This document shows, one piece after another, positions 3,819 to 25,943 of a stretch of 47,544 nucleotides of DNA. A program made the position numbers and the translations under genes. The DNA comes from Eubacteriales bacterium (GTDB taxonomy: Bacteria; Bacillota; Clostridia; Oscillospirales; CAG-272), in NCBI GenBank assembly GCA_045534875.1, contig JAZSKO010000049.1:1-47544 (forward strand). The letters are read 5' to 3'. Every line of letters begins with the position of its first letter. Position 1 is the stretch's first letter. The notes beneath the pieces were generated by a model, which had not been told where the DNA came from, searched no databases, and was given only the letters and a program-made list of their open reading frames with translations.

Positions 3819-5102
3819 ATGAAGAAAAACAGAAAGCTGATTTTTCTGACAGCATTGCTTCTCTTGTCCATGCTGCTCTCGGCGTGTAACACACAGGGAG
3901 GCAGTACGGTCGGCACAACGGCTGAGCCGAGCGCCGAAGCCCCAACCACCACACAGCCGATCGAGGATGACTCTCCGAAGGTCGAGCTTCCCGCGGATAA
4001 AACCCTGACGCAGGGCATCGTGGGCGAGATCAAGGGAGGAGAGCGGAAGTATCAGGCATGGCCGTCGGTCTGCTCGGATGAGGATGGCGTTCTCTATGCG
4101 GTGGCCTCGGGCTATCGCGCAGGACACATCTGCCCCTTCGGCAAGGATGTTATGTATATCAGCCGAGACGGAGGACAGACGTGGTCCACCCCCTATCTCA
4201 TCAATGACACCGTGATGGACGACCGCGATTGTGGCATTCTGTATCTTGGCGAGGGCAAGATGCTGATCTCTTGGTTCCATAACGCGCCGGAGTACTATTA
4301 CAACTACTACGAAAAGAACCCCTCGCAACTTACCTCTCAGGTGCAAGCGATCTTGAATCAATGGAAGCAGCTTCCGGCGGAGGAGCAGAGAAACGGCGGA
4401 TCGTATGTGATGCTTTCCGAGGATTACGGCGTGACGTGGCAGGAGCCTGTCCGTGTACCGATCTCCGCGCCGCACGGCCCGACACTGCTCTCCGATGGTC
4501 GACTGCTCTACGCAGGCAATGAGCATTTTGCAACCGACGGTGGCGGATATTTGTCCGGCATCAAGGTCTACGAAAGCTCCGATAACGGCAAAACGTGGAC
4601 GGCATCCGGCTCGATCACCGCGCCGAGAGCAAACACCTTTGAGCCTCACGTCGCCGAGCTAGCGGATGGCTCGATCCTCTGCGCCATTCGCGCACATACG
4701 AATGGAAAGGATAGCGGAAAGGATCTGACGATCTATCTCTCGAAATCCACAAACGGAGGGAAATCCTGGACGGTAGCAAAGGCCACGGGCTGGTGTGGCT
4801 CGCCGCCTCACATTCTGGTGCATTCGTCGGGGGCTGTGATCCTGACCTACGGCTTTCGGGGTGTTGATGGCGATAATGCCTACGGCGTCAGAGCGCGCGT
4901 CAGCTACGATAACGGAAGCACGTGGAGCGATGAGATCATTCTCAGCAACAATTCCCCCTCGGGCGACTGTGGCTATCCTTGCTCCGCCGAGCTGCCCAAT
5001 GGCGCGATCGTAACGGTTTATTATCAAGCGATCGCAAAGGGCGAGCCCTGCTCGATCCTTTACACCCGTTGGTGGCACACCGAGGAGGCAAAGCAGGGAT
5101 GA
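3819..5102 (+). CDS. BNR/Asp-box sialidase-superfamily lipoprotein (paralog 2)
   Basis: ATG 3819 follows AAAGGAG. Lipoprotein signal MKKNRKLIFLTALLLLSMLLSAC. Asp-boxes SRDGGQTW, SEDYGVTW, SSDNGKTW, SYDNGSTW. Collinear with paralog 1 (RKYQAWPSVCSDEDGVLYAV..., GYPC). Confidence 0.8.
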   Translation: MKKNRKLIFLTALLLLSMLLSACNTQGGSTVGTTAEPSAEAPTTTQPIEDDSPKVELPADKTLTQGIVGEIKGGERKYQAWPSVCSDEDGVLYAVASGYRAGHICPFGKDVMYISRDGGQTWSTPYLINDTVMDDRDCGILYLGEGKMLISWFHNAPEYYYNYYEKNPSQLTSQVQAILNQWKQLPAEEQRNGGSYVMLSEDYGVTWQEPVRVPISAPHGPTLLSDGRLLYAGNEHFATDGGGYLSGIKVYESSDNGKTWTASGSITAPRANTFEPHVAELADGSILCAIRAHTNGKDSGKDLTIYLSKSTNGGKSWTVAKATGWCGSPPHILVHSSGAVILTYGFRGVDGDNAYGVRARVSYDNGSTWSDEIILSNNSPSGDCGYPCSAELPNGAIVTVYYQAIAKGEPCSILYTRWWHTEEAKQG

Positions 5103-6532: not shown

Positions 6533-6583
6533 TTCATCTTATATAAGGTGAAAATAAAAATTTTTTCAAAGGAGACGAACCCC

Positions 6584-9163
6584 ATGAAAAAACTTCTCAG
6601 TTTGTTCCTCACCCTCGCCATGCTGTTTGGGCTGGCGGCAGTGCCGGTGTTCGCAACCGAATCGACCGTGATCGGTTACGCCCCCGCCATTTCCGAAGCA
6701 GCCAAAGCGGCGAACGCCGAAAACGTAGCGGCAGCCACCGAGATCACGGCTACCACTGCGTACGACGCCAGCGTCACCTACTGGAAGATCTCGACAGCCG
6801 AAGGCTTTTTGAGATTTGCTCAGCTGTGTGACGGTACCAACAAGTTTGCAGGTAAGACGGTTTACCTGACGGCAAACATCGACCTGAGCTTTGCAGGTGT
6901 CTTCACCCCCGTGGCTCCCTCCGGCTCGGAGCGCTTCTCCGGAACCTTCGACGGTCAGGGCTACGCGATCGACAACGTTGAGATCGTTTCTTCCGCTTCT
7001 ATGGTAAATGGCTCGATCTTTGGCCTTATTGAAAACGGAACGATCAAGAACCTTGTGGTCGGAAGCGGCGTGCTGGTCCATGCCAAGGATCGTAGCCACG
7101 GCACAAACAACGCGGCTGTCTGCTCGCAGGCAATTGGAACCAGAAACTATTTTACCAACATCTACTCGGCCGCTACCGTGATCGGTGTTTCGAATATGAC
7201 GGCAGGAATCGTTGCATTGGATAACGCCGGTACGGCCAACACCCTCTCGAACGTCACCAACGCAGGAAACGTTTGCGGTAACTACGGCAGAACCGGCGGT
7301 CTCATCGGTCGCGCAAGCTATCCTACCGTGATCGAGAACTGCCGCAACATTGGTAGCGTAACGGGCGGTATCAGAAATGACGCCAGCAACGGTGTTGGCG
7401 GTTTCATCGGCGGAACCAACGGAAATAACAATCAAACCATCACGATCACCAACTGCATCAACAACGGCTCTGTGATCGCTGTTGGGGCTGCTACGGCAGG
7501 CAAGAACATCAAGATGGCAGGATTTGTGGGTACCAAGTCGGGAAGTCCCGGCGAAACGGTTGTCTTTACCAACTGCTACAACTACGGCACCGTGACCCCG
7601 GATGCAAATACCACCGCCTACGGTCTTGCCGACACCACGAACACGGCAAACACCTTTACCAACAGCGAGGACAGAGCAGGTCAGACCGACGCAACCCTCG
7701 CAACTGCCTTCACCTACCTCGACGCAGGCTATCAGGCAGACATCGTAAAGAAGGTTGATCTCACCGGAATTGCGAACATCCTCAACTACTCCGCGTCTGC
7801 AACCGACACCAAGTACATGATCGACACCCCCGCAGGCCTTGTGAAGCTCGCCGAGATCGTCAACGGCGGCGACACCCTCTCGGGCAAGACCATCTACCTC
7901 GGTGCTGACATCAACATGGTCAACGTGACCGACTTCACTCCCATCGGAAACACCGCTGATCTGGTATTCTCGGGTACCTTTGACGGTCAGGGACACGTGA
8001 TCGACAATCTCGTCGTAAAGACCACCGGCGCATACGTTGGTCTGTTCGGCAAGATCAAGAACGCAAGTGTTTGCAATGTTGTGATTGGTGCGAATTCCTC
8101 CTTCTCCGCCACCTCCTCTGTGGCAAACCATAGCTTTGGTAGCATTGCAGGTCTGGCCCATGGCGTCAGCACGATCTACAACGTCTATTCCGCGGCTGCT
8201 GTGATCGAGAACAAGTCCACCGTTGGCTACAACGGCGGTATCCTTGGCTCGAATTACATGGCAGGCACCGGCTCGCACGTGATCGTTCGCAACGCAACCT
8301 ATGCAAATGCAACCGATGGCATTTCCTCCACCCGTCGCGCAGGCGGTATTATGGGATATGTTTACACGAATGAGAATAATTATTGCACCAACGGTGTTTA
8401 CATCTTCAACTGCCACAACACAGGAAAGGTTTCCTGCACCAATGCAACCGGGGACAGCGGCATGAATGCGGCAGGCATTCTGGGTCATGCACAACACGGA
8501 ACGGCTCACATCAGCGGTTGTGTGAACAGCGGCGAGACGAGCGCACCCTACAAAGCATCCATTCTGGCTGTTTCCAACACCAGCAACACCTACACCGCTA
8601 TTTCCAACTGCGTCAGCTACACCGCCGATCCCATCTGCAAGGAGAATGCGATCGGTAAGGTCGCCGCTTCGGGATGCACCGTCTCCGCCGAGACCGCACC
8701 TGTTGCAACTGCGCCTGTTGCAAGCTATCCCGCCGCGATGATCCACGGCTATCAGAAGTCCACTGCAACCTACACCAATAAGGATAAGGAGTGCATCTCG
8801 ATCCGTCTGGTTGGCTCGATCGACTCGGACGCCTACAAGAAGGTCGGCTTCAAGATCACCGTGACCACGGACAACAACACCTACGACTTTGATTATTCCG
8901 ACACCACCGTGTATTCCGCGCTTACCGCCACCACGGATGGAAGCATCGGAACGGTCGCCATCAGCTCGATCCGCGATAGCGCATCCGCTTTCTATGCTGT
9001 TACCATCAAGAACCTGTCCACCTCGCTTGGAACCATTGATGTTAAGGTAACGCCTTATGCTATCGCAATGGATGGAAGCCCCGTGGAAGGCACCGCCGCT
9101 ACCTTCTTGGTGGATTGCAGTGCGGCCGCTTCCTCGGGCAATGTTGCCGTAAACGAGGGTTAG
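6584..9163 (+). CDS. Secreted repetitive beta-helix surface protein 1 (two FxGTFDGQGxxIDN modules with GLUG-like G-G-[LFI]-[IVM]-G repeats); ends at an in-frame TAG
   Basis: ATG 6584 lies 8 nt after AAAGGAGA. Signal peptide MKKLLSLFLTLAMLFGLAAVPVFA. Motifs FSGTFDGQGYAIDNV and FSGTFDGQGHVIDNL. Repeats RTGGLIGRA, GVGGFIGGT, MAGFVGT, RAGGIMGY, AAGILGH. C-terminal beta-sandwich-like domain. Confidence 0.8.
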   Translation: MKKLLSLFLTLAMLFGLAAVPVFATESTVIGYAPAISEAAKAANAENVAAATEITATTAYDASVTYWKISTAEGFLRFAQLCDGTNKFAGKTVYLTANIDLSFAGVFTPVAPSGSERFSGTFDGQGYAIDNVEIVSSASMVNGSIFGLIENGTIKNLVVGSGVLVHAKDRSHGTNNAAVCSQAIGTRNYFTNIYSAATVIGVSNMTAGIVALDNAGTANTLSNVTNAGNVCGNYGRTGGLIGRASYPTVIENCRNIGSVTGGIRNDASNGVGGFIGGTNGNNNQTITITNCINNGSVIAVGAATAGKNIKMAGFVGTKSGSPGETVVFTNCYNYGTVTPDANTTAYGLADTTNTANTFTNSEDRAGQTDATLATAFTYLDAGYQADIVKKVDLTGIANILNYSASATDTKYMIDTPAGLVKLAEIVNGGDTLSGKTIYLGADINMVNVTDFTPIGNTADLVFSGTFDGQGHVIDNLVVKTTGAYVGLFGKIKNASVCNVVIGANSSFSATSSVANHSFGSIAGLAHGVSTIYNVYSAAAVIENKSTVGYNGGILGSNYMAGTGSHVIVRNATYANATDGISSTRRAGGIMGYVYTNENNYCTNGVYIFNCHNTGKVSCTNATGDSGMNAAGILGHAQHGTAHISGCVNSGETSAPYKASILAVSNTSNTYTAISNCVSYTADPICKENAIGKVAASGCTVSAETAPVATAPVASYPAAMIHGYQKSTATYTNKDKECISIRLVGSIDSDAYKKVGFKITVTTDNNTYDFDYSDTTVYSALTATTDGSIGTVAISSIRDSASAFYAVTIKNLSTSLGTIDVKVTPYAIAMDGSPVEGTAATFLVDCSAAASSGNVAVNEG

Positions 9164-9235
9164 ATCGTTGCAGGAGGGGGAACCTCCTACGCAGCTTGGC
9201 CCAGCATTTGTGTAGATGACGATGGCGTCTTCTAC

Positions 9236-10192
9236 ATGGTCGCATCGGGCAACCGTACAGGGCATATGTCCTATGACGGAGAGAATGTTTTATACACCAG
9301 TCGGGACGGAGGAAAGACTTGGAGCGCGCAGTCGGTCATCAACGCGCAAGCGGGGATCGACTTTCGCGATGCAGGCATTCTCTATCTTGGTAACGATCAA
9401 TTTCTTTTGAACTATTTTGTAGCCTATGAATCGGGTGGCACACGTGTCACGGCAAATTCCTACGTTCGGCAGGGAACCCTTTCCAACGGCGTGATCACAT
9501 GGGGCGACGCGATCCAAGTACCGCTTCAATCCCCCCACGGCCCCACACAGCTTTCCAACGGAACGCTGTTCTGGGTGGGTGACGCCTACTACGATCCCTC
9601 CGAGGGCTACGATAAGAACAATGACGGGAAGAACGACTACACCCGTGGCAACGACTATGCTATGAAAAGCACCGACGGCGGAAAGACATGGAGCTTCGTG
9701 GCGCATATGCCCAACATTCCCAATTATGGGGCGCAGGGCTGTGAGTTCCACACCACCCAGCTTTCCTCCGGCAGACTGGTCACCACGATCCGTTTGAGCG
9801 TGAATTCCCAGCTTCAAACCTACGTTTCCACCTCCGACGATCAGGGCGTCACATGGACAACCCCCGTCCTTGTGACCAAGGGCGCACCTGCTCATCTTTT
9901 GGCGCATCCCTCGGGGATTCTCGTTATGACCTACGGCTTCCGCGGCGACACGGCTACGGGCGAAACCAAGTACGGTATTCGCGCACGCCTGTCCTATGAC
10001 GGCGGTGACACGTGGGGGGAGGAGATCCTGCTGGACAGCACAGCCGCCACGGATGATTGCGGCTATCCCTGCTCGGTCGAGGCGAAGGACGGAAGTCTTT
10101 ACACGGTCTACTACAAGACAAACGCATCGAGCTCTGCTCCCGGTATTTGGGGCGTTTCATGGACGCTTCCCACGCAGATGCCCACGGAGTAA
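9236..10192 (+). CDS. BNR/Asp-box sialidase-superfamily propeller (paralog 3); homology extends upstream to the TAG at 9161, so it is probably the C-terminal domain of the 6584 ORF (split gene, pseudogene or read-through)
   Basis: Same frame as 6584..9163. Positions 9164-9235 translate to IVAGGGTSYAAWPSICVDDDGVFY, matching the N-terminal strand of paralogs 1 and 2. There is no in-frame ATG/GTG/TTG before 9236 and no signal peptide. Asp-boxes SRDGGKTW, STDGGKTW, SYDGGDTW; GYPC is present. Confidence 0.6.
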   Translation: MVASGNRTGHMSYDGENVLYTSRDGGKTWSAQSVINAQAGIDFRDAGILYLGNDQFLLNYFVAYESGGTRVTANSYVRQGTLSNGVITWGDAIQVPLQSPHGPTQLSNGTLFWVGDAYYDPSEGYDKNNDGKNDYTRGNDYAMKSTDGGKTWSFVAHMPNIPNYGAQGCEFHTTQLSSGRLVTTIRLSVNSQLQTYVSTSDDQGVTWTTPVLVTKGAPAHLLAHPSGILVMTYGFRGDTATGETKYGIRARLSYDGGDTWGEEILLDSTAATDDCGYPCSVEAKDGSLYTVYYKTNASSSAPGIWGVSWTLPTQMPTE

Positions 10193-10213: not shown

Positions 10214-11662
10214 ATGAAAAAACTATGCAAAAAGGGCATGAGCCTGCTCCTGGCTCTTTTCCTGCTTTGCGGTGCATTTGCTCTCGTTTCCTGTGACGGA
10301 AACAAGGGAAGCACCCAAGGAGGAACAACGCCCAATTCCACCCCATCGGGAGAAGCCTCTCTGATGGATCAACACGCGGCCGCTAAGGATTTTGATGGAC
10401 GTGATTTCAATATCCTGACCGTCAGCAACTATAACGAGCTCCACTACTTCGCAACAGACGATGCAACTGCCACCGGGATCGAGGCCTCCTGCTATGCGAG
10501 GACTCTCTACTTGGAGGAGCGGTACAATGTTGAGTTGAAGGTGATCGAGGTGGAGAAGCCTCACGAGTCGCTGATGGAAATGGCGGGAACCGATACACAG
10601 GCGTATGACCTGATGTTCCCCCATCCGAAGGTCGGAATTGCCTCGTTGGCAACCGCCGGCTATATGGTGGATATGCTCACGCTCAACGAGCTGGACTTCT
10701 CGCAGGATTGGTGGGTCAACGGAATGGTAGAGGGCTATAAGATCAACGGAGGCCTCTACTATACCTCCTCGGATGCCGCCATCGTTTCCCAAGGCCTTGC
10801 GGGCTTGATCTACAACAAGGACCTCTACAATACCTATGGCTTTGAGGAAGACTTGTATCAGGTCGTCTACGATAAGGAATGGACGCAGGAGAAAATGCTG
10901 GAGATCATGGAGGTGATCTCGTCAAGCACCAGCGGTTCCACCGGAACCTATGGCTTTATTCATCACAATTCGCACACCTACGGAATGGCAGTTGGTATGG
11001 GCTATCAGATCCTGAAAAGGGATGCCGATGGCACCATGACCTTCGCGCCTACCAAGGAGAGCACCGTCAAGATCGCGGAGGCGGTCTATGATATCTTCTA
11101 TGAGCACGAGAAAACCGTGTTTGCAGGCTCTGCCGCAACCAACGCCGTTCTCGGCTCCTCGGAGATCTGGCTGTTGTTCTCGGGAGGAAAGGGATTGTTC
11201 ATGAGCTTCGACATTGGACAGACCTACTCTCTCTTGCGTGACCTTCGCTTTGACGTGGGCTATCTGCCGTTCCCGATGCTCGAAAACGAGGTGCAGAAGG
11301 ATTACAAGATGTTCTGCGGATCGGGACTTTACGGGATCCCCACCACGGCCGTGAACGCAGAGGACAGCGCGCTGATCTTCGACGCCTACTCGATTTACAG
11401 CATGGAGCATGTCAAGCCTGCCTTCTTTGAGATCATCATTGGAGGACGGTTGTCCGAGAATCCTGCGGATTTCGAAATGCTGAACTATCTGCATATGAGA
11501 AAGAGCTTTGACCTTGGCTTCACCTTGGATGAGGGCAATATCTTCTATGCCTTGATCCACACGGCGGCCGTGGCGCAAAAGAACCCGCAATCGGTTGGCC
11601 GTCTGCTCACGCAGTATTCCAGCACGGCGCGCAATCTTGAAAAGCTCGCAAACGGTACGTAA
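10214..11662 (+). CDS. Extracellular solute-binding-protein-like lipoprotein (family-1-like), with no cognate permease or ATPase nearby
   Basis: RBS AAAAGGAG. Lipobox LVSC in MKKLCKKGMSLLLALFLLCGAFALVSC, followed by a Gly/Ser/Thr linker. At ~480 aa, its size and mixed alpha/beta composition resemble Clostridial sugar SBPs (DFDGRDFNILT...). The family call rests on gestalt only. Confidence 0.5.
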   Translation: MKKLCKKGMSLLLALFLLCGAFALVSCDGNKGSTQGGTTPNSTPSGEASLMDQHAAAKDFDGRDFNILTVSNYNELHYFATDDATATGIEASCYARTLYLEERYNVELKVIEVEKPHESLMEMAGTDTQAYDLMFPHPKVGIASLATAGYMVDMLTLNELDFSQDWWVNGMVEGYKINGGLYYTSSDAAIVSQGLAGLIYNKDLYNTYGFEEDLYQVVYDKEWTQEKMLEIMEVISSSTSGSTGTYGFIHHNSHTYGMAVGMGYQILKRDADGTMTFAPTKESTVKIAEAVYDIFYEHEKTVFAGSAATNAVLGSSEIWLLFSGGKGLFMSFDIGQTYSLLRDLRFDVGYLPFPMLENEVQKDYKMFCGSGLYGIPTTAVNAEDSALIFDAYSIYSMEHVKPAFFEIIIGGRLSENPADFEMLNYLHMRKSFDLGFTLDEGNIFYALIHTAAVAQKNPQSVGRLLTQYSSTARNLEKLANGT

Positions 11663-11694
11663 TGATGAACACGTATATTTTTAAGGAGAATAAC

Positions 11695-14250
11695 ATGAAA
11701 AAGATTCTTGCTACCATTTTGGCATTGATTCTGGTTCTGTCCACCGCTTCGATCGGCGTATTCGCAGATGACACGGTGATCGGCTATTCCTCCGCGCGTG
11801 TGGATGCCGCAGACCTGAGTCTGGTTGCCGACATTTTGGATTATGACGCAGCGAATCCGGCTGCGGCCTACAAGATCACGCAGGCGGCAGGACTGGTAAA
11901 GCTTGCCGAGATCGTAAACGGTAAGGACGATGTCGCAGGTGTGACGCTGGCGGATGTTACCATCTATCTGGCGGGAGACATCAACATGGGACTCGTCAGC
12001 GCCTACGCCCCCATCGGCGTCGATAAGGCGGCCGCGCACTTCGAGGGAACGTTTGACGGTCAAGGTCACGTGATCGACAATCTCAAGCTCACCTCCACCC
12101 AGCAAAACGCGGGTCTGTTCGGAAGCATTCAGAATGCGACCATCAAGAACCTTGTGATCGGCTCGGGCTGTCGCTTTGTTTCCAACTACTCGGGCGAGGA
12201 CCGCTTTGCGGCCATCGCAGGACAGGTGGACGGCGCTTGCCTGATCGACAACTGCTACAACATGGCAAACGTCGTCGGTAACAAGCTGATCGGCGGCTTT
12301 GCAGGACGTGTGGACAGCAATGGCAATGAGGGCAATGTCCTCACCATCAAGAACTCCACCAATGCAGGCGACATCAGCGGCTTGCGCCGTACGGGCGGCT
12401 TCGTTGGCGTTGGCGGCGCGATCGCTATGGACAATTGCCGTAACACGGGCGACGTGTATACCATGGATTGCACCGACGGCGCAGGTGTGTATAATCCTCA
12501 GCACTGCGCGGGCGGTCTGGTTGGTCTGCTTTGGGGTCAGTCCCTCACCGTGACCAACTGCATCAACAACGGAGCGATCAAGGCGGCAGGAAGTGCCGTT
12601 GGAGGATTGCTTGGTGTTGGTGCATATTCGGTTTCCGGAGGTAGCATTGCATCCTCCATCAACTACGGAAGCATTACCATGGAATTCGACAACCTTGGTA
12701 GCTATGAGGGCCCGATCGTGGGACACGATGCAACCGGAAAGATCAGTGTCGATTCCTCCGCAACCGATCGCACGGGTCAGACCGACGATACGTTGGAGGG
12801 CGACATCGAGACGATCACCCCCAACTTTATCCATACCGAAACCACCGATCCCACGGGCGATCCCAACGCAGGCCCGATCCTCAACCCCTACGATGACGAC
12901 GTAACCGATACGGTCGGAATCGTTGGCTTCTCGTCGCAAAGAGTGGAGAAGGTGGATCTGACCGAGATCCCCGCGCTTTCCACTTGGACGGCCGAGAGCG
13001 AGGAGACCGCATATAAGATCCTCACCGCCGATGAGCTTCAGCTCCTTGCCGACATCGTCAACGATGGAAACTCGATGGAGGGGATCACCATTTATCAGGG
13101 TGCTGAATTGGACATGGTGAACATCATTGGTATGCCTCCCATCGGATGGAACGACGATAAGCCCTTCTCGGGAACCTATGACGGACAGGGCTACATCATC
13201 GACAACTACCAGCCCATGGTAACCAACGATATCATCACCGTCGAGGGAAGTGCCGAGTACGTTCGCTACGGTCTGTTCGGAACGCTTGACGGCGCAACGG
13301 TGAAGAACGTGGTGCTGGGTGAGAACTGTGTCATCGCAAACAATACCAGACGCGGACATATCTGCGCAGGTGGTATCGCGGGCATGGTGATCGGCACGGC
13401 CACCATCGACAACTGCTATGTCATGGCGATCCTCATTACGGGCTTGCAGCACGTTGGCGGTATTGTGGGTAACATTGCAGGCATGAACGATGCCGCGATC
13501 ACCGACCGCGTCATCATCCGTAACTGCACCGTAACCAGCGAGATCGTGGCAGAGTACACGGTGGGCGGTATGGTTGGAACCAAGGGAGCTCCCGGATCGC
13601 TGATCGTGAAGAACTGCCGCACCACGAATGTGGTCGAGAACTCCTTGGCACAGGATGCGAACCGCACCGGTGACAAGGTCGCGGCAGGTGTGGTTGGCGT
13701 GATTTCGGCCGGTATCGTGGCGATCACCAATGTGACCAACACGGCCGAGATCCGATCCAAGACCACGATCGCTGGCGTCTTTGGACACGCGCAGAACACG
13801 GCCGAGGTCGTGTTGAAGGATGTTACTCTCTATGGTTCGATGACCGAGGAGGACGAGACCGTTGTGTATGGTCAGATCTATGCCACGAAGGGCGTTCGCG
13901 CCAGCGTCGTTGGCGAGGATGAGGTTGAATTGAAGTTCGGAGAAGAGGATGAGACCTTGGATCTGGAGGAGATCGTTCTGGGTGGCGGAAGCTCTGGAAA
14001 TGAGCCCGGCGGCACCCCCGACACGCCCGATACCCCCGGTACGCCTGACACCCCCGACGATGGAACGGGTAGCACCGTTACCGATCCTTCTACCACGACC
14101 ACGGATAAACCCAACACGACCACTCCTGCAACCCAAACGCCCGCTGATGGCGGCACGGAGGCAGGATGTGCTTCTGCCGTTGGTGGAATGCTGGTGATCC
14201 TGCTTGCAGGCGGCGCCGCACTCACCGTTTGCAAAAGAAAGCAAGATTGA
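11695..14250 (+). CDS. Secreted repetitive beta-helix surface protein 2 (two FxGT[FY]DGQGxxIDN modules) with a Thr/Pro stalk and a C-terminal GCAS-TM-basic tail
   Basis: ATG 11695 lies 6 nt after AAGGAG. Signal peptide MKKILATILALILVLSTASIGVFA. Motifs FEGTFDGQGHVIDNL and FSGTYDGQGYIIDNY. Repeats IGGFAGRV, RTGGFVGVG, CAGGLVGLL, AVGGLLGVG, HVGGIVGNI, TVGGMVGTK. The tail is TEAGCASAVGGMLVILLAGGAALTVCKRKQD. Confidence 0.8.
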   Translation: MKKILATILALILVLSTASIGVFADDTVIGYSSARVDAADLSLVADILDYDAANPAAAYKITQAAGLVKLAEIVNGKDDVAGVTLADVTIYLAGDINMGLVSAYAPIGVDKAAAHFEGTFDGQGHVIDNLKLTSTQQNAGLFGSIQNATIKNLVIGSGCRFVSNYSGEDRFAAIAGQVDGACLIDNCYNMANVVGNKLIGGFAGRVDSNGNEGNVLTIKNSTNAGDISGLRRTGGFVGVGGAIAMDNCRNTGDVYTMDCTDGAGVYNPQHCAGGLVGLLWGQSLTVTNCINNGAIKAAGSAVGGLLGVGAYSVSGGSIASSINYGSITMEFDNLGSYEGPIVGHDATGKISVDSSATDRTGQTDDTLEGDIETITPNFIHTETTDPTGDPNAGPILNPYDDDVTDTVGIVGFSSQRVEKVDLTEIPALSTWTAESEETAYKILTADELQLLADIVNDGNSMEGITIYQGAELDMVNIIGMPPIGWNDDKPFSGTYDGQGYIIDNYQPMVTNDIITVEGSAEYVRYGLFGTLDGATVKNVVLGENCVIANNTRRGHICAGGIAGMVIGTATIDNCYVMAILITGLQHVGGIVGNIAGMNDAAITDRVIIRNCTVTSEIVAEYTVGGMVGTKGAPGSLIVKNCRTTNVVENSLAQDANRTGDKVAAGVVGVISAGIVAITNVTNTAEIRSKTTIAGVFGHAQNTAEVVLKDVTLYGSMTEEDETVVYGQIYATKGVRASVVGEDEVELKFGEEDETLDLEEIVLGGGSSGNEPGGTPDTPDTPGTPDTPDDGTGSTVTDPSTTTTDKPNTTTPATQTPADGGTEAGCASAVGGMLVILLAGGAALTVCKRKQD
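14011..14061 (+). repeat. 9-nt-period coding microrepeat ([GD]-T-P x5) in the stalk of surface protein 2
   Basis: ggcaccccc gacacgccc gataccccc ggtacgcct gacaccccc encodes GTPDTPDTPGTPDTPD. Confidence 0.7.
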
Positions 14251-14290: not shown

Positions 14291-14422
14291 ATGAAAAAGA
14301 CATATGTAAGACCTGAGACCGAAATCACTGTGATCTCGTTTGAGGATATTCTCACGACCTCCAAGCTGATCTATGCCGACGACGGCGAGGGCGGATACAT
14401 CGACGGAGTTATCATCCTGTAA
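14291..14422 (+). CDS. Candidate 43-aa small ORF (MKKTYVRPETEITVISFEDILTTSKLIYADDGEGGYIDGVIIL)
   Basis: ATG 14291 lies ~12 nt after AGAAAGGAAG. It sits 40 nt after the stop of surface protein 2 and is followed by a GC-rich hairpin. No family was recognised. Confidence 0.35.
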   Translation: MKKTYVRPETEITVISFEDILTTSKLIYADDGEGGYIDGVIIL

Positions 14423-19468: not shown

Positions 19469-20368
19469 ATGCGAAGCGATCTTGCCAAGGAAGCGATCCA
19501 TGATCTGGGGCATTTGCCTGAGGGAGCGACCCTTCACACGCACCGCGTTGGGAGGATCGAGATCCATCGGATGCGCGTGCAGACCGAGGAGGCGGCGACC
19601 TCTCTTGGGAAGGGGATCGGTCATTATGTGTCTTTGGAAAGACCAAAGCTGCACGTTTTGGAGGGGGAGGAACGGGAGATCTTTTCCCGTCTTTTGGCGG
19701 GAGAGCTCAAAGCGATGGCAGAGCGAATGACAAAGCCGAAAGCGAAAAATCCACTCTCTGTTCTGGTTGTTGGGCTTGGAAACGCCGACCTCAGCGCGGA
19801 TTCGCTCGGACCTCGAACGGTTGCTCGCCTGACGCCGACGGGACATATGACAGAGGAGGCTCCTACTCTCCTTCAAGAGCTTGGATGTGCCTCGCTCTTT
19901 CTGTTTTCTCCCGGTGTAACAGGACAGACAGGTATCGAAGGGGCGGTTCTTTTGCAGGCGATCGCGCAAGCAGTGCGACCAGATTTGATCGTGGCGGTGG
20001 ATTCCTTGGTGGCGCGAAGCTGTGAGAGCCTTTCCAATTCGGTGCAGCTTTCGGACACGGGGCTGGTTCCGGGATCGGGCGTCGGAAATCGCCGACAAGC
20101 GCTTTCAAAGGAGACGATAGGCGTCCCCGTGATGTCCTTGGGTGTTCCCACCGCCGTCGAGACGGATACCCTCATTCGCGATGCGGCTGATTCCCTGAAA
20201 GACGCGGAAAAGGAGGACTTTTTGCGGAAAGTACCGCGAAAAAGTCGCTCTTTTCTGGTTTCCCCCGCCGATTGCGATCGAGTTGTCCACCGCCTTTCCG
20301 CTCTGCTTGCACGAGCGATCACATTGGCATTCCTGGGCGATTCTTTTTTGGATGTTTGCATAGAATAG
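19469..20368 (+). CDS. gpr: Germination protease (GPR endopeptidase, peptidase A25)
   Basis: 299 aa. VLVVGLGNADLSADSLGP, PGVTGQTGIE, AVDSLVARS and QLSDTGLVPGSGVGN are characteristic GPR blocks. RBS AAAGGAGG. Confidence 0.85.
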   Translation: MRSDLAKEAIHDLGHLPEGATLHTHRVGRIEIHRMRVQTEEAATSLGKGIGHYVSLERPKLHVLEGEEREIFSRLLAGELKAMAERMTKPKAKNPLSVLVVGLGNADLSADSLGPRTVARLTPTGHMTEEAPTLLQELGCASLFLFSPGVTGQTGIEGAVLLQAIAQAVRPDLIVAVDSLVARSCESLSNSVQLSDTGLVPGSGVGNRRQALSKETIGVPVMSLGVPTAVETDTLIRDAADSLKDAEKEDFLRKVPRKSRSFLVSPADCDRVVHRLSALLARAITLAFLGDSFLDVCIE

Positions 20369-20474: not shown

Positions 20475-22217
20475 ATGAAAATCTTACGTACCGTATGTCT
20501 TCTTTGCGCCTTGCTCCTCTTGTTCACGGCCTGCGCCGGACTTGGAGGAAACGAGCAGGTGACCACCGAAGTGCCTCCCACGACCCCCTCGCCGGAGGAT
20601 ATTCCGCACGCCTTTTCGGACTTCCAGATCGTTCGTCCCGACAAGGCCACCGACAAGGAGATCGACGGAATGATCCGCGTGAAAAACGCGATCAAGGCGT
20701 ACACGGGTAAGAACCCCACCTTGAAGACTGACTTTAAGGAGTCGGATCAGAAGGTCTGCGAAATTTTGATTGGAGAGACGAACCGTCCCGAGACCGGAAT
20801 CGTGGCCGAAACCTTAAAGGCGGCGGATTACGTGGTGCAGACCGTGTATTCCGATAACGGCGTCAAGATCGTGCTTCTCGGTCCGAACGAGAACCTCACC
20901 CTCAGCGCGGTGGATGAATTCATCGAGCTTTTGAACGATGGAAAGGTGATCGACGCCGACGGAAACTATACGGCCGTCAACAGCGCGCACAACTACTACG
21001 ACGAATTTGAAAACTACACCATGAAGGTCAGCGATCCCGTGGTGGTGATGCAGTCCGAGGAGGATGATCAGCACTGGGGACACTACCAATTTCCTTACAT
21101 TTTTTATACAGCAAACGGCTCGATCATGGTAACATGGTCTTACCATGACGATAGCATCTACACCTCGGGAGGGAGCGGAAGCGCTTACTCCACCGACGGA
21201 GGCAAGACATGGAAGATCGGAAACGGCGGAAACCGTGTCTACGATCCCATCAAGACCGGAACAACGAAAGACACCTGCTTTGCGGGCTTTGCCGGCAGAG
21301 GGGGCTACGTTGTCGATATGATCGACGCCGAGCCTGTTGTGGTGAATGGCATGGGAAATGTGGATGTTTACCTCGCAAAGGATCTGAATTGCTACAATTT
21401 CCAGCCGCAGGGAATCTTCTTTAATTCCAAGAGCGGAGGCTCCGCCGCCCGACCGGTCACAGTGAACTGGCCCTATCTGCCTGTGAACGTGAACGTCGAT
21501 CCCGAAACGGGACTCAAAACCTTCGTTTATCCCACCGAAGCCTTCCTTGCGATCAACTCCTACGTTGGCGTGATCTCCACCGACAGCGGCCTGTACTACT
21601 GCACCTACGCGCGCGGGATCGACTCCAAAACGGGAGAGGTCACCAAGTACAGCGGCTATTACAGCACCTACGTCTTCCATTCGGCCGACGGAGGCTACAC
21701 GTGGAACTATATCTCGCAGGTCTCCATGACCGATGAGATCTTTGCAGAAGCCAACATCAACAAAAACTGCGAGGGCTTCTGCGAGCCGACCATCGCGATC
21801 ACGCGCAACGGCACCTTTATGATGCTTTTGCGTACGGGAAGCAACAATCCCTGCTACATCGTTCGCTCCACCGATAACTGCCAGACATGGAGCAAGCCCG
21901 AAAAGTTTGCCGATTGCGGCGTTTATCCTCAGCTTCTCACCTTGGATTGCGGCGTGACGCTGGCCTCCTACGGTCGTCCCAAGCTTTACATCACCTCCTC
22001 CAACGATCCTGACGCGATCAACTGGAAGCGCCACCGTCAAATTCCGCTGACCCTTACCTCCGGCGGATCCCGCGCTTCCTGCTTCTACACCTACCTCTTG
22101 CGCGTGGATGCGACCACCGCCATGCTCGTCTATTCCGACTTCCAGCTTCCCAATGCCGATCGACAGCCGCGAAAGGCGATCCTCGTGCGAACCATCGAGT
22201 TTCTTCCGAGTAAATAG
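20475..22217 (+). CDS. BNR/Asp-box propeller lipoprotein, large type, paralog A
   Basis: RBS AAAGGAGAG. Lipobox FTAC in MKILRTVCLLCALLLLFTAC. N-terminal ~150-aa domain (ILIGETNRPET). Asp-boxes STDGGKTW, SADGGYTW, STDNCQTW. Ends with TAG. Confidence 0.7.
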   Translation: MKILRTVCLLCALLLLFTACAGLGGNEQVTTEVPPTTPSPEDIPHAFSDFQIVRPDKATDKEIDGMIRVKNAIKAYTGKNPTLKTDFKESDQKVCEILIGETNRPETGIVAETLKAADYVVQTVYSDNGVKIVLLGPNENLTLSAVDEFIELLNDGKVIDADGNYTAVNSAHNYYDEFENYTMKVSDPVVVMQSEEDDQHWGHYQFPYIFYTANGSIMVTWSYHDDSIYTSGGSGSAYSTDGGKTWKIGNGGNRVYDPIKTGTTKDTCFAGFAGRGGYVVDMIDAEPVVVNGMGNVDVYLAKDLNCYNFQPQGIFFNSKSGGSAARPVTVNWPYLPVNVNVDPETGLKTFVYPTEAFLAINSYVGVISTDSGLYYCTYARGIDSKTGEVTKYSGYYSTYVFHSADGGYTWNYISQVSMTDEIFAEANINKNCEGFCEPTIAITRNGTFMMLLRTGSNNPCYIVRSTDNCQTWSKPEKFADCGVYPQLLTLDCGVTLASYGRPKLYITSSNDPDAINWKRHRQIPLTLTSGGSRASCFYTYLLRVDATTAMLVYSDFQLPNADRQPRKAILVRTIEFLPSK

Positions 22218-22236
22218 GAAATAAGGAACGGAAACG

Positions 22237-24048
22237 ATGAAAAATCTTTCAATTATCAGCCTTTTCTTAACCCTTGTATTCCTGCTTTCCGCCTGCGCGG
22301 GGCTTGGCGGCTCGACCGCCCAAACCTCGTCGGCGGAGACGAACCCTGTCACAGGTGATCCCGACAACGGGGGAGGGGATGCGCCCACGGGAACGTCGCT
22401 TGATGATCGCCTTTCCGCATTCGCCGTTGTCTGTGAGGCGGATGCCTACGGCGTAGTGGAGGAATCGGTGACCGATCTGCTCGCCGCCCTATCTGCAAAA
22501 ACGGGAAAGACCCACCAAAAGATCAAGGACACCTCGGAGACCGGCGTTCCCTGCGAATTCTTGGTCGGTGACGTCGATCGTCCCGAGACCAAGCTCGTCA
22601 AGGCCTCCTTACAGGCAGGTGACTACGCTGTGCAAACGGTTCTCTCGGACACCACCATCAAGGTGGTTCTCGTCGGCTACAATGATAAGCTCACCCAAGC
22701 TGCCGTTGAGACCTTCCTCGAAAAGCTGGAAAAAGGAGAAGCCATCGAATCCGATGGCAGGTATAAGACCGTGAATTGCTTGAAGAATTACTACGATCCT
22801 TATAAGAGCTTTACCATTGACATCAGCGATCCCACCGTGATCTTTCAGGCGCAGAAGGAGGACACGCACTGGGGACACTACCAGTTTCCGCGTATCTACC
22901 ATACCTCCACGGGCGCGATCTATACAAGCTGGTCCTACCACAACGACAGCATCTATGAGTTCGAGACACCCGGCCGCGCCGAGGCCTCCTATGCCACCTC
23001 TGCGGATGGAGGCAAGACATGGAGTCTCGACACCGCAAACGGCGCGATCGTCTACGATCCGAACAAGGCACTCATGTCCAACGGACGCTATTTCATGGGC
23101 TTTTCCAGTAATAAGTCCTACTATGAGATCGACCGTGAGGTGATCGCCAAGTACACGCCTGCCATTCCGGTTGCGAAGGGCGCGAAGATCTATCTGGCAG
23201 ACGAGGTCGAGGAATATACCTTCAACCTGTCGGGCAGGGAAATGGACCCCGAAACGGGCGCAACCTATTCCTTCCGCGCCACCGTAAACTGGCCCTATAT
23301 GCCGCTTCCGGTCTTTTACAGTCCCAAAACGGGGAACTATACCTACGTTTACCCCACCGAAAATTACTTCACGCTCAGCAATTACACGGGAATCATTGCC
23401 GCCGATGACGGTCTCTATTTCTGTATGTATACCATGGGCGTGGACTCCAAAACGGGAAATGCGGGACGGTACAGCGGACATTACAGCGTGTTCGTCTTCC
23501 ATTCCTCCGATTGCGGGCGCACATGGAACTATAAATCACAGGTCGGCATGACCACCAAGATCTATACCGAGGTAAACGTGAACAACAACTGCGAGGGCTT
23601 TACCGAGCCCACGATCACGGTAATGCCCGACGGATCGTTCGTCATGCTCCTGCGAACGGGGAGCAACCTCCCCTCCTACATCGTTCGCTCCACCGATCAC
23701 TGCCAGACTTGGAGCGAGCCCGTGAAATTCGATGCCTTCGGCGTTTTTCCCCAGCTTCTCACCTTGGATTGCGGCGTGACGCTGGCGGCCTACGGAAGAC
23801 CGAAGCTCCACCTGCGTGCCACATCCGATACCAAAGGCTTGGATTGGGAGGATCCCATCGAGATCCCCTTGCACGAAGACCCTAATAGCACGGATTGGAA
23901 CACGAAATCCTGCTTCTATCCCTTCTTCCTGCGGATCGACGAGACCACCGCCATGATGATTTACAGCGAATTCCTCCTGCCGAACGCAGACGGACAGCCA
24001 CGAAAGGCGATCCTTGTGCGAACCATCAAGATCCTTCCGAGTGATTGA
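22237..24048 (+). CDS. BNR/Asp-box propeller lipoprotein, large type, paralog B
   Basis: Lipobox LSAC in MKNLSIISLFLTLVFLLSAC. Collinear with paralog A. Asp-boxes SADGGKTW, SSDCGRTW, STDHCQTW. Confidence 0.7.
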   Translation: MKNLSIISLFLTLVFLLSACAGLGGSTAQTSSAETNPVTGDPDNGGGDAPTGTSLDDRLSAFAVVCEADAYGVVEESVTDLLAALSAKTGKTHQKIKDTSETGVPCEFLVGDVDRPETKLVKASLQAGDYAVQTVLSDTTIKVVLVGYNDKLTQAAVETFLEKLEKGEAIESDGRYKTVNCLKNYYDPYKSFTIDISDPTVIFQAQKEDTHWGHYQFPRIYHTSTGAIYTSWSYHNDSIYEFETPGRAEASYATSADGGKTWSLDTANGAIVYDPNKALMSNGRYFMGFSSNKSYYEIDREVIAKYTPAIPVAKGAKIYLADEVEEYTFNLSGREMDPETGATYSFRATVNWPYMPLPVFYSPKTGNYTYVYPTENYFTLSNYTGIIAADDGLYFCMYTMGVDSKTGNAGRYSGHYSVFVFHSSDCGRTWNYKSQVGMTTKIYTEVNVNNNCEGFTEPTITVMPDGSFVMLLRTGSNLPSYIVRSTDHCQTWSEPVKFDAFGVFPQLLTLDCGVTLAAYGRPKLHLRATSDTKGLDWEDPIEIPLHEDPNSTDWNTKSCFYPFFLRIDETTAMMIYSEFLLPNADGQPRKAILVRTIKILPSD

Positions 24049-24107
24049 CCCCTGTTGCCCACACCATTCCAATCGAACCCATTAGAACCTCAAAAGGAGA
24101 TTTTATT

Positions 24108-25943
24108 ATGAAAAAGCTTTCCATTGTCAGCCTTCTCTTGGCACTCATCTTCCTGCTTTCCGCTTGCGCGGGGCTGGGAGGCTCCACCGCTCAGACCTCT
24201 GGCGCGGAGACGAACCCTGTCACCAATCCCGTCACCGACCCTGTCACAGGTGATCCCGACAATGGGGAAGGCGATGCCCCCACGGGAACGCCGCTTGATG
24301 ACAGCCTTTCCACCTTCGCCGTTGTCTGCGAGAAGGGCGCGTACGGTAGAGTGGAAACCTCGGTGACCGATCTGCTCGCCGCTCTCTCTGCAAAAACAGG
24401 AAAGACCCACCAAAAGATCGAGGATACCTCGGAGACCGGCGTTCCCTGCGAATTCTTGGTCGGTGACGTCGACCGTCCCGAGACCAAGCTCGTCAAGGCA
24501 TCCTTGCAGGCAGGTGACTACGCTGTGCAGACCGTTCTCTCGGACACCACCATCAAGGTGGTTCTCGTCGGCTACAACGACAAGCTCACCCAGATCGCCG
24601 TCAATGCCTTCCTTGAAATGCTGGAAAACGGCGAGGCTACCGAGGCTGACGGAAGCTACAAGACCGTGAACTGCTTGAAGAACTACTACGATCCCTATAA
24701 GAATTTCACCATTGACATCAGCGATCCCACCGTGGTCTTCCAAGCAAAGAACGAGGACACGCACTGGGGACACTACCAGTTCCCGCGTATCTATTACACC
24801 AACAAGGGCGCGATCTATACAAGCTGGTCCTACCATAACGACAGCATCTATCCGGGCGAGACCCCCGGCAAGGCAGAGGCATCCTACGCTACCTCCACCG
24901 ACGGTGGTAAGACGTGGAATCTCAACACCTCCAACGGCGCGATCGTGTACGATGAAGACAAGGTTCTCATGCCCAACGGCAGATACTTTATGGGCTTTTC
25001 GCACAATAAGGGCTACACCGAAATGGACTTTTCGACCCTCTCCAAGTACACTCCCTTGGTGCCGGCCTCGGCTGACGGAAGTGTTGTGGTCTATCGCGCC
25101 GAGGATGTAAAGGAGTACAAGTTCGCTATTTCGGGCAGAGAAATGGATCCCGAGACGGGCGCGTCCTATTCCTTCCGTGCCACCGTCAACTGGCCGAATA
25201 TGCCTCTGGTCGTTCACAAGAGCCAGACCTCGGGCCTCTATACCTATGTGGCTCCCACAGAACGTTACTTTACGCTGAGTAACTACACGGTGATCGCAGG
25301 CGATGACGGTCTCTATTTCTGCATGTATATTCAAGGCCCCGATGCCAAAACGGGACAGGCGACCCGGTTTAGTGGCTATTACAGCATCTACGTGTTCCAT
25401 TCTCCCGATTGCGGCCGCACATGGAACTACAAGTCTCAGGTGGGCATGACCGCCAGACTCTTTTCCGAAGCAAATGCGAAAGGCGGCTGTGAGGGATTTG
25501 ACGAGCCCACAATGACGATCATGCCCGACGGCTCCTTCGTCATGCTCCTGCGTACGGGAGCCAACAACCCCTCCTACATCGTTCGCTCCACCGATAACTG
25601 CGAGACATGGAGCACTCCTGTGAAGTTCGATTCCTGTGGCGTCTTCCCACAACTTCTCACCTTGGATTGCGGCGTCACGATCGCGGCCTACGGTCGTCCC
25701 GATCTCTATGTGCGCGCCACCTCCGATGTCAAGGGCTTGGATTGGGAGGATCACATTGAGATCCCCCTGAGCGCATCCCCCAATGGATCGGGTTGGGAAT
25801 CCTGCTTCTATCCCTTCCTTTTGGAGATCGACGAGACCACCGCTATGATGATTTACAGCGAATTCTACCTGCCGAATGCAGACGGACAGCCGCGTAAGGC
25901 GATTATCGTGCGAACCATCAAGGTCGTACCAAACGAAGCCTGA
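24108..25943 (+). CDS. BNR/Asp-box propeller lipoprotein, large type, paralog C
   Basis: ATG 24108 follows AAAGGAGA. The track start at 24045 overlaps gene B and has no RBS. Lipobox LSAC in MKKLSIVSLLLALIFLLSAC. Asp-boxes STDGGKTW, SPDCGRTW, STDNCETW. Long DNA tracts are identical to paralog B. Confidence 0.7.
   Translation: MKKLSIVSLLLALIFLLSACAGLGGSTAQTSGAETNPVTNPVTDPVTGDPDNGEGDAPTGTPLDDSLSTFAVVCEKGAYGRVETSVTDLLAALSAKTGKTHQKIEDTSETGVPCEFLVGDVDRPETKLVKASLQAGDYAVQTVLSDTTIKVVLVGYNDKLTQIAVNAFLEMLENGEATEADGSYKTVNCLKNYYDPYKNFTIDISDPTVVFQAKNEDTHWGHYQFPRIYYTNKGAIYTSWSYHNDSIYPGETPGKAEASYATSTDGGKTWNLNTSNGAIVYDEDKVLMPNGRYFMGFSHNKGYTEMDFSTLSKYTPLVPASADGSVVVYRAEDVKEYKFAISGREMDPETGASYSFRATVNWPNMPLVVHKSQTSGLYTYVAPTERYFTLSNYTVIAGDDGLYFCMYIQGPDAKTGQATRFSGYYSIYVFHSPDCGRTWNYKSQVGMTARLFSEANAKGGCEGFDEPTMTIMPDGSFVMLLRTGANNPSYIVRSTDNCETWSTPVKFDSCGVFPQLLTLDCGVTIAAYGRPDLYVRATSDVKGLDWEDHIEIPLSASPNGSGWESCFYPFLLEIDETTAMMIYSEFYLPNADGQPRKAIIVRTIKVVPNEA
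24213..24248 (+). repeat. 12-nt coding tandem repeat x3 (NPVT-NPVT-DPVT) in the lipoprotein linker of paralog C; single copy in paralog B (22342-22353)
   Basis: aaccctgtcacc aatcccgtcacc gaccctgtcaca, read directly from the sequence. Confidence 0.8.

Follow-up and report, generated by a model that had tools for sequence, protein, structure and literature searches.

An invariant 29-nucleotide element at a conserved in-frame UAG codon between a secreted beta-helix protein and a sialidase-fold propeller: a candidate for programmed read-through on a bacterial chromosome

Read-through of a stop codon with the help of a structured 3' stimulator is textbook knowledge for eukaryotic viruses and for some animal genes. 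Bacterial ribosomes also make minor, C-terminally extended products by reading a stop with a near-cognate tRNA, as in the A1 protein of phage Q-beta (which uses UGA) and the amber read-through of CS3 in enterotoxigenic Escherichia coli (ETEC), a phage and a plasmid gene, respectively, for which we know of no conserved structured 3' element. Programmed read-through with a structured stimulator is, to our knowledge, essentially undocumented for bacterial cellular genes. Here we describe a locus on a 47,544-nucleotide (nt) contig of a member of the Clostridia (JAZSKO010000049.1; the whole stretch is referred to below as the window), in which a single in-frame TAG at 9161-9163 stands between the gene for a secreted beta-helix protein and a six-bladed propeller domain and is embedded in an invariant 29-nt element. 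Unlike Q-beta A1 and CS3, it belongs to a chromosomal glycan-utilisation locus, and we propose, with about even confidence, that the two parts form one recoded gene.

The closest described signals are those of murine leukaemia virus (MuLV), alphaviruses, tobraviruses, tobamoviruses and the Drosophila genes hdc and kelch, which Firth et al. found through enhanced conservation at synonymous sites (PMC3159437). Like MuLV gag-pol, the present locus has an in-frame UAG between a structural and an enzymatic part, and it shares with the MuLV, alphavirus, tobravirus and hdc/kelch signals conserved spacer bases and an RNA structure, here a predicted one, about 8 nt 3' of the stop (PMC3159437, PMC4178896). 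These signals, however, act on eukaryotic ribosomes and eRF1 and have longer stems or pseudoknots with covariation, whereas here the setting is a bacterial chromosome and RF1, and the predicted 6+5-base pair (bp) hairpin has no covariation and arms made of a Shine-Dalgarno (SD) sequence and an anti-SD mimic. The tobamovirus signal (xxA-UAG-CAA-UUA) is likewise an invariant short UAG context in which the third base of the -1 codon is kept despite a change of residue (PMC3159437), but its sequence is another one, the system is eukaryotic and a hairpin is not needed. In bacteria, Belinky et al. (2021) reported in-frame TAG codons at orthologous positions with a ratio of nonsynonymous to synonymous divergence (dN/dS) below 1, interpreted as read-through (PMC7918605). 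Those cases are shallow (dS 0.003-0.17), with flips between TAG and CAG and no cis element (PMC7918605), whereas the lineages compared here have diverged almost to saturation, with the stop kept throughout and the 29-nt element alongside it. Conserved in-frame stops in bacteria have so far been noted statistically, without cis elements; this is a deeper case, with a defined one.

A conserved stop ahead of a selected frame that lacks a start

The beta-helix open reading frame (ORF; 6548..9163 on the forward strand, with its ATG at 6584) and the ORF annotated at 9236..10192 (+) lie in one common frame, and TAG 9161-9163 (+) is the only stop that separates the former from the propeller (9164-10192). 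An earlier reading, made from the letters of this DNA (hereafter the sequence-only reading), had described this arrangement, and its coordinates and frame are correct. It had also claimed that no in-frame ATG, GTG or TTG lies between the TAG and position 9236 and that the region is coding, and both points hold: the 24 codons of 9164-9235 (ATC GTT GCA GGA GGG GGA ACC TCC TAC GCA GCT TGG CCC AGC ATT TGT GTA GAT GAC GAT GGC GTC TTC TAC, read as IVAGGGTSYAAWPSICVDDDGVFY) include none of the three, and the 23 codons that follow the element, ahead of the annotated ATG, also evolve as coding sequence.

The annotated start of the propeller, ATG 9236..9238 (+), is not credible. It is residue 25 of the ORF that opens at 9164 and falls in the middle of beta-strand 2 in the AlphaFold model; it has no SD (the duplex with the 16S tail reaches -2.1 kcal/mol, against -9 to -13 kcal/mol for the real genes of the window); and its position is CTG in two of the orthologous contigs (L004 and L012), where gene callers choose a still later ATG. 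A strong SD (-11.7 kcal/mol) does lie inside the 29-nt element, but it is not followed by a start or near-cognate codon in the propeller frame in any ortholog, and is therefore unusable for canonical initiation; nor does any ortholog have an ATG, GTG, TTG or near-cognate codon 4-13 nt past it in any frame entering the propeller. The sequence-only reading had rightly pointed to the SD-like GGAGGGGG at 9173-9180 as lacking a start, but missed that this GGAGG forms the 5'-side stem of an invariant predicted hairpin. A stop, 8 nt and a perfect AGGAGG masked by pairing recall translational coupling through a hairpin-sequestered SD, in which the terminating ribosome would open the masked SD; here, however, no usable start or near-cognate codon follows towards the propeller. 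An out-of-frame TTG at 9168 was considered as a start and rejected, as the ORF that it opens has only 15 codons and is not conserved.

We collected orthologs by protein searches and compared the contigs of the matches as syntenic loci. The propeller belongs to a very small orthologous group, with just four clusters above 60% identity followed by a drop to 43% or less, and the beta-helix protein has two partners at 43-45%; a profile search of genome_contigs with the four-ortholog propeller alignment found no relatives. The loci come from GCA_965342355.1 (L001), a Joint Genome Institute (JGI) metagenome (L006), six ENA/Logan assemblies of one lineage (L002-L005, L008 and L009), a Logan assembly of the window's own lineage that differs by a few single-nucleotide polymorphisms and stems from another run (L007), and a mosaic of L004-like and L006-like lineages (L012). 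In all 11 contigs, the window and ten others from independent assemblies representing four lineages and the mosaic, an in-frame TAG occupies the same alignment column. The stop is always TAG and never TAA or TGA, and a canonical start after it, ahead of the first strand of the fold, is absent in every ortholog. Orthologs with a separate propeller gene equipped with its own ribosome-binding site (RBS), start and signal peptide, which the sequence-only reading had named as the observation that would speak against a split fusion, were looked for and not found, so that this test did not refute the idea: all orthologs keep the TAG and none has a start.

Two of these contigs have peculiarities of their own. 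At 5730-5890 of L008, a gap of Ns, about 140 nt of unrelated G+C-rich DNA and a second, partial copy of the element region, with TCC for the TAC of the main copy, form a scaffolding artefact that adjoins the TAG site. In L012, the part ahead of the TAG matches L006 at 88% and L004 at 85% identity, whereas the part behind it matches L004 at 97% and L006 at 79%, which could reflect recombination or chimeric assembly at the shared identical stretch; L012 also has an additional in-frame TGA at about 437-439, in place of a Cys codon of the window (..DPICKEN..).

Selection on the downstream frame was estimated with the Nei-Gojobori method in between-lineage comparisons. Nucleotide identity between lineages is 54-79%; at the protein level, the part ahead of the TAG is 46-64% identical and the part behind it 65-76%. 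Over the 340 codons downstream, the proportion of synonymous differences (pS) is 0.43-0.74 (dS 0.6 to >3, near saturation) and that of nonsynonymous differences (pN) 0.15-0.26, giving a dN/dS of about 0.1-0.25. Because this ratio is low, and because the stretch before the annotated ATG shows like values, the pattern of substitution argues that the propeller, its first strand included, is translated and functional in all lineages.

The invariant element and its predicted hairpin

The stop is part of a 29-nt element, U-UAG-AUCGUUGC-AGGAGG-GGGAA-CCUCCU (9160..9188, +), that is identical in the window and in L001-L009 and L012, and that consists of a U, the UAG, an 8-nt spacer, a stem arm (AGGAGG), a loop (GGGAA) and a second stem arm (CCUCCU). 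In the codon alignment of the four lineages, nine successive columns are codon-identical over the element, and the longest other run in about 1,200 columns is of three. Among degenerate columns in which the amino acid is invariant, 23.5% are codon-identical in the four lineages, and eight such columns in a row have a p of about 9e-6. Eight synonymous sites fall within the invariant stretch, and so does the last base of the -1 codon, which is kept though the residue changes (GGU for Gly or AGU for Ser, the latter in L001). The neighbouring paralogs' true RBS regions, by comparison, have changed freely in these lineages; a likeness of the element to the RBS of paralog 1 (aggaggggttacc-ATG) was dismissed on the ground that this RBS is not conserved in the orthologs.

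The element is present once per locus and absent elsewhere in the window. Rfam, searched with permissive E-values, returned nothing relevant to it, an exact 21-mer of the element had no match in genome_contigs, JGI metagenome_contigs or viral_contigs, and a codon-degenerate pattern gave two chance matches in metagenome_contigs, in unrelated contexts.

Folding predicts a hairpin at 9167..9195 (+), with a lower stem (9167-9171/9191-9195), a bulge (9189-9190), an upper stem (9172-9177/9183-9188) and a loop (9178-9182). The upper stem is G+C-rich, has 6 bp and begins 8 nt past the stop, the loop has 5 nt, and 3-5 pairs form the lower stem. The core has a minimum free energy of -10.9 kcal/mol, and a 46-nt context that takes in the lower stem reaches -16.7 kcal/mol (z about -2 relative to shuffled sequences). 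In the RNAalifold consensus, the upper stem and three lower-stem pairs are retained in four of four orthologs, with one U-A changed to U-G. Inspection of the aligned sequences for a pseudoknot partner of the loop GGGAA found no UUCCC downstream. That the loop, the spacer and even wobble-tolerant stem positions never vary suggests a sequence-specific partner.

Domain architecture on either side of the stop

The upstream ORF (6584..9163, +) encodes 859 amino acids (aa) and is preceded by an SD, AAAGGAGA. Its product opens with a Sec-type leader, MKKLLSLFLTLAMLFGLAAVPVFA (signal peptide 6584-6655), and continues with GLUG-like beta-helix repeats, for which Pfam gives a weak GLUG match only. Next come a beta-sandwich module of about 125 aa without a Pfam model (8726..9115, +) and, directly ahead of the stop, a linker-like, low-complexity tail of 15 aa rich in Ser, Ala, Gly and Asn (CSAAASSGNVAVNEG; 9116..9160, +), seen in the ortholog alignment. 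The non-fused beta-helix homologs (window 11662-14250, P0012, P0016, P0018 and P0025) end differently, in a Pro/Thr-rich stalk and a C-terminal membrane anchor of the pattern G-C-x-S...hydrophobic...KRK(Q/E)D, in place of which the TAG-terminated protein has the beta-sandwich and the 15-residue tail.

The same beta-sandwich stands between beta-helix and propeller in uninterrupted fusions of related uncultured Clostridia. BLASTP with 8726-9115 matched P0013 (E 5e-10) and P0004 (E 6e-4) and did not detect the module in the transmembrane-anchored paralog P0020. Continuous ORFs combining beta-helix, beta-sandwich and BNR_2 propeller are found in P0013, P0004-P0011 and P0019, and these fused GLUG/BNR_2 proteins have the order seen here, namely signal peptide, beta-helix, beta-sandwich, linker and propeller; they differ in that their ORFs are uninterrupted, their linkers are others and they are only 26-31% identical. 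An exhaustive HMMER scan of a representative library of 1.8 billion proteins gave 194 significant matches to the beta-sandwich, which may be an undescribed accessory domain family, and in many of the matches listed it is the C-terminal domain of a protein with a length of some hundred residues. Either product, the short one or that of read-through, would thus be a natural architecture, and the module, being often C-terminal elsewhere, is not counted as a sign of an ancestrally fused architecture.

Downstream of the stop, 9164..10192 (+; 342 codons and TAA) encodes a six-bladed, sialidase-fold BNR_2 propeller that can be read only as a continuation of the upstream frame. In Pfam, 9164-10189 matches BNR_2 (3.6e-14) and also BNR, and AlphaFold models it as a closed propeller (predicted local distance difference test (pLDDT) 92.6, predicted template-modelling score (pTM) 0.92), whose first strands are residues 9-17 (YAAWPSICV) and 23-31 (GVFYMVASG). 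The model thus has the predicted six-bladed fold with Asp-box/BNR repeats that is one mark of family GH33. The closest solved structure is 5hx0 (Dfer_1899, uncharacterised; hmmsearch 6e-34, Foldseek TM 0.78), followed by GH33 sialidases at 14-19% identity, the TM values for 5hx0 and the sialidases together ranging from 0.64 to 0.78. The family-invariant R68, D69, E194, R210, R260 and Y301 are all kept. The sequence-only reading had noted T-S-Y, where the paralogs read F-R-Y or R-K-Y, at the position of the RIP arginine of classical sialidases, but the argument is not supported: the stand-alone homologs differ in the residue ahead of the conserved Tyr (R, K, R, A, H, T, R, N).

Across the whole subfamily, strand 1 has the motif (G/A)-W-P, with the consensus FxYxGWPS, and the two paralog strings quoted in the sequence-only reading are found in the paralogs. 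The TAG-associated propeller is the third copy at this locus; it is 37-43% identical to the stand-alone paralogs and closer to these than to the fused proteins. Stand-alone propellers start M-K-H-G-I-V-G-R..., so that the TAG falls exactly at the N-terminal boundary of the domain. Paralog 1 (ATG 2699) has no signal peptide and paralog 2 is a lipoprotein (LLSAC), while the third copy would reach the outside of the cell solely as a fusion. That a product begun at 9236 would lack an export signal had been pointed out before; it does lack one, but this is not odd, given that paralog 1 is signal-less too. A loop at 9602-9640 (EGYDKNNDGKNDY, residues 147-159 of the 9164 ORF; pattern EGYDKNxDGxNDY) is specific to the third copy and kept in all its orthologs, and its resemblance to DxNxDG calcium sites is a weak hint at an extracellular life. 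The window has six BNR_2 genes in total; three tandem paralogs at 20475-25943 (+), of 580-632 aa, each have a partial BNR_2 match near the C-terminus.

The genes around the junction encode two further BNR_2 paralogs, a GDSL esterase, a second beta-helix protein, an unknown 482-aa protein and a GH36-like enzyme, and the window also encodes SpoIIP, Gpr, AddAB and a two-component system; the locus is a glycan-utilisation cluster on the ordinary chromosome of a spore-forming member of the Clostridia. A conserved 42-aa ORF without Pfam annotation (MKKxYVxPETEI...DGGYIDG...; about 14297-14422 (+) in the window, 15837-15965 in L001 and 11013-11141 in L004) is found in three lineages, flanked by the second beta-helix gene and the GH36-like gene, and may encode a small peptide. 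Two overlapping ORFs at the edge of the glycan locus (85-372 and 369-1223, +), the second with HTH_21 and rve integrase domains in Pfam, resemble an IS3-type transposase pair, usually joined by a -1 frameshift. The ORFs at 4979 (GDSL), 6548 (beta-helix), 9236 (propeller) and 10214 (482 aa) all share one frame in the window but not in L001, which is probably a coincidence.

Read-through and its rivals

Because a selected ORF without a start lies directly behind a conserved stop, there are two realistic routes to the propeller, read-through and re-initiation, and of these we favour read-through, which also fits best among the alternatives that the sequence-only reading had listed. We infer that decoding of the UAG is the route of expression, and propose that most ribosomes would stop at UAG 9161-9163 and release the 859-aa secreted beta-helix and beta-sandwich protein, while a fraction would read the UAG as a sense codon, in the simplest case through a near-cognate tRNA such as that for Gln or Tyr, and go on in the same frame across a flexible linker of 24 residues to the propeller. 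The resulting long form, of about 1,200 aa, would be secreted as well, placing the enzyme domain behind the only signal peptide open to it. The read-through level would be set by the invariant 3' element (U-UAG-A context, 8-nt spacer and AGGAGG/CCUCCU hairpin), the hairpin presumably standing at the mRNA entrance of the ribosome while the UAG is in the A site. Under read-through, the peptide expected across the junction is ...NVAVNEG-[Q/Y/K/W]-IVAGGGTSYAAWPSICVDDDGVFYMVASGNR.

A more specific version of this proposal, which we put forward tentatively, is a sequence-specific cassette in which the UAG context and the SD/anti-SD-mimic hairpin would engage the ribosome (possibly the 16S 3' tail) or a so far unrecognised factor. 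RF1 termination would then be held at a set inefficiency, yielding a binding protein and a fusion of binding protein and enzyme at a fixed ratio.

Several observations weigh against read-through of this kind. No compensatory change supports the stem (0 of 29 alifold pairs are doubly changed), since it never varies, and the hairpin rests on thermodynamics, with a z of only about -2, and on invariance. The invariant loop, spacer and wobble-tolerant positions exceed what a simple road-block hairpin would need. The location of the TAG exactly at the N-terminus of stand-alone homologs (MKHG-IVG...) is what a two-gene arrangement would give, and the frequent C-terminal position of the beta-sandwich in other, shorter proteins means that the short product alone would be nothing unusual. 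Bacteria read through UAG at a low basal level. The hotspots of read-through in an E. coli reporter library were not explained by predicted downstream structure, and G rather than A was the favoured +4 base (PMC11126739); read-through in these reporters depended on the five nucleotides upstream and on the +4 base, and UAG was read mainly as Gln or Tyr (PMC11126739).

The strongest of the competing explanations, although an unlikely one, is re-initiation, in which the terminating ribosome would restart at the adjacent AUC (9164-9166) and produce a cytoplasmic propeller at a low, fixed ratio tuned by the element. UAG and AUC are indeed adjacent, re-initiation employs initiator tRNA, can do without an SD and works best over very short distances (PMC2268962), the stop coincides exactly with the N-terminal border of the MKHGIVG homologs, and a signal-less propeller has a precedent in paralog 1. 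However, the UAG is followed by AUC only, with no ATG, GTG or TTG for 24 codons; AUC is a non-canonical start of the sort that IF3 discriminates against (PMC2268962), and the SD-like pairing ahead of it is weak (-3.8 to -6.4 kcal/mol, where real genes reach -9 to -13) and not conserved. Judging from the geometry of the ribosome footprint, the P site could get to the AUC only if the G+C-rich stem 5-8 nt ahead were melted with no translocation taking place. Re-initiation also gives no reason for a non-canonical start to be fixed in all lineages across saturated divergence, and leaves the strict identity of the TAG unaccounted for.

It is rather improbable that the element is a regulatory site unrelated to decoding, such as an operator on the 6-5-6 inverted repeat or the target of an RNA-binding protein or small RNA, with the propeller expressed by some other route. 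AGGAGG-N5-CCTCCT is a perfect inverted repeat within a sugar-utilisation cluster, an AraC-type regulator is encoded nearby in L001, and invariance instead of structural covariation would suit a sequence-specific binder. This explanation nonetheless leaves the stop, the -1 base and the spacer within the invariant block unaccounted for, as well as the purifying selection on an ORF without a start; no promoter-like or terminator-like site was found at the TAG junction, and Rfam offered no match.

Slightly less probable again is a dedicated tRNA that decodes the UAG (a suppressor tRNA-CUA, pyrrolysine or a UAG-reading selenocysteine-type tRNA), with the hairpin as an insertion element like the selenocysteine and pyrrolysine insertion sequences (SECIS and PYLIS). 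Those elements, too, are hairpins immediately 3' of a redefined stop, a loop and stem of invariant sequence are what a factor-binding element would have, and the strict UAG identity fits. SECIS, however, needs UGA, SelB and tRNA-Sec, pyrrolysine needs pylTS, and the known proteins with either residue are methyltransferases and redox enzymes. The window and the ortholog loci have no pyl or sel genes, and tRNA-Val, in the window, is the only tRNA in any of them. The codon is UAG and not UGA, the homologs have no Cys there, and the site is a low-complexity linker at a domain boundary of a beta-helix/propeller gene, not an active-site residue or a methylamine methyltransferase-type context. The code here is standard, because TAG terminates ordinary genes of the window, namely gpr (19469-20368; Peptidase_A25, 2e-50) and the BNR gene at 20475-22217, past whose ends further in-frame stops follow 8 and 47 codons on. 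Reassignment of UAG to pyrrolysine or selenocysteine is nevertheless among the known routes to genomic 'read-through' (PMC7918605).

We consider it highly improbable that the locus is a decaying remnant, in which a nonsense mutation left a truncated gene and a dead tail. Pseudogenes are commonly recognised by an in-frame stop, and fused relatives exist; but the recent nonsense mutation or pseudogenisation entertained in the sequence-only reading is contradicted by a downstream frame that is intact in all lineages with the low dN/dS given above across saturated synonymous divergence, by downstream identity equal to or above that upstream, and by the retention of every family-invariant residue in a confidently predicted fold.

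Translational bypassing of the stop, as in phage T4 gene 60, is given almost no weight and is excluded by the data. The ingredients of the gene 60 signal, a stop after the take-off codon, a hairpin and an SD-like sequence, all have counterparts here, the UAG coming straight after the putative take-off codon; but this codon differs among lineages (GGU, AGU in L001), the GGU lineages have no matching in-frame landing codon, and the ..YAAWPSIC.. that a hop would leave out is strand 1 of the fold and evolves under selection at the protein level (for a review of bypassing, see PMC7026636). Least probable of all is a sequencing or assembly artefact, for although the window is a contig of a metagenome-assembled genome and the related scaffold L008 has an artefact beside the site, the same TAG occurs in 11 contigs from different samples and assemblers, the near-identical L007 from another run among them.

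The read-through proposal offers a rationale for the arrangement: the enzyme domain has no export signal, and read-through would attach the propeller to a secreted carrier. If AUC re-initiation were the true route, the locus would instead hold an unusual, stably maintained non-canonical start. If the sequence-specific cassette proposed above is real, no earlier stimulator of read-through with a structure would have been described for cellular genes of bacteria. The locus supplies a compact, 29-nt candidate element backed by deep conservation. If confirmed, read-through here would provide an annotation signature with which to rescue "split" genes, could provide a small natural part for setting protein-isoform ratios, and would mean that bacterial ribosomes can be programmed by a read-through element.

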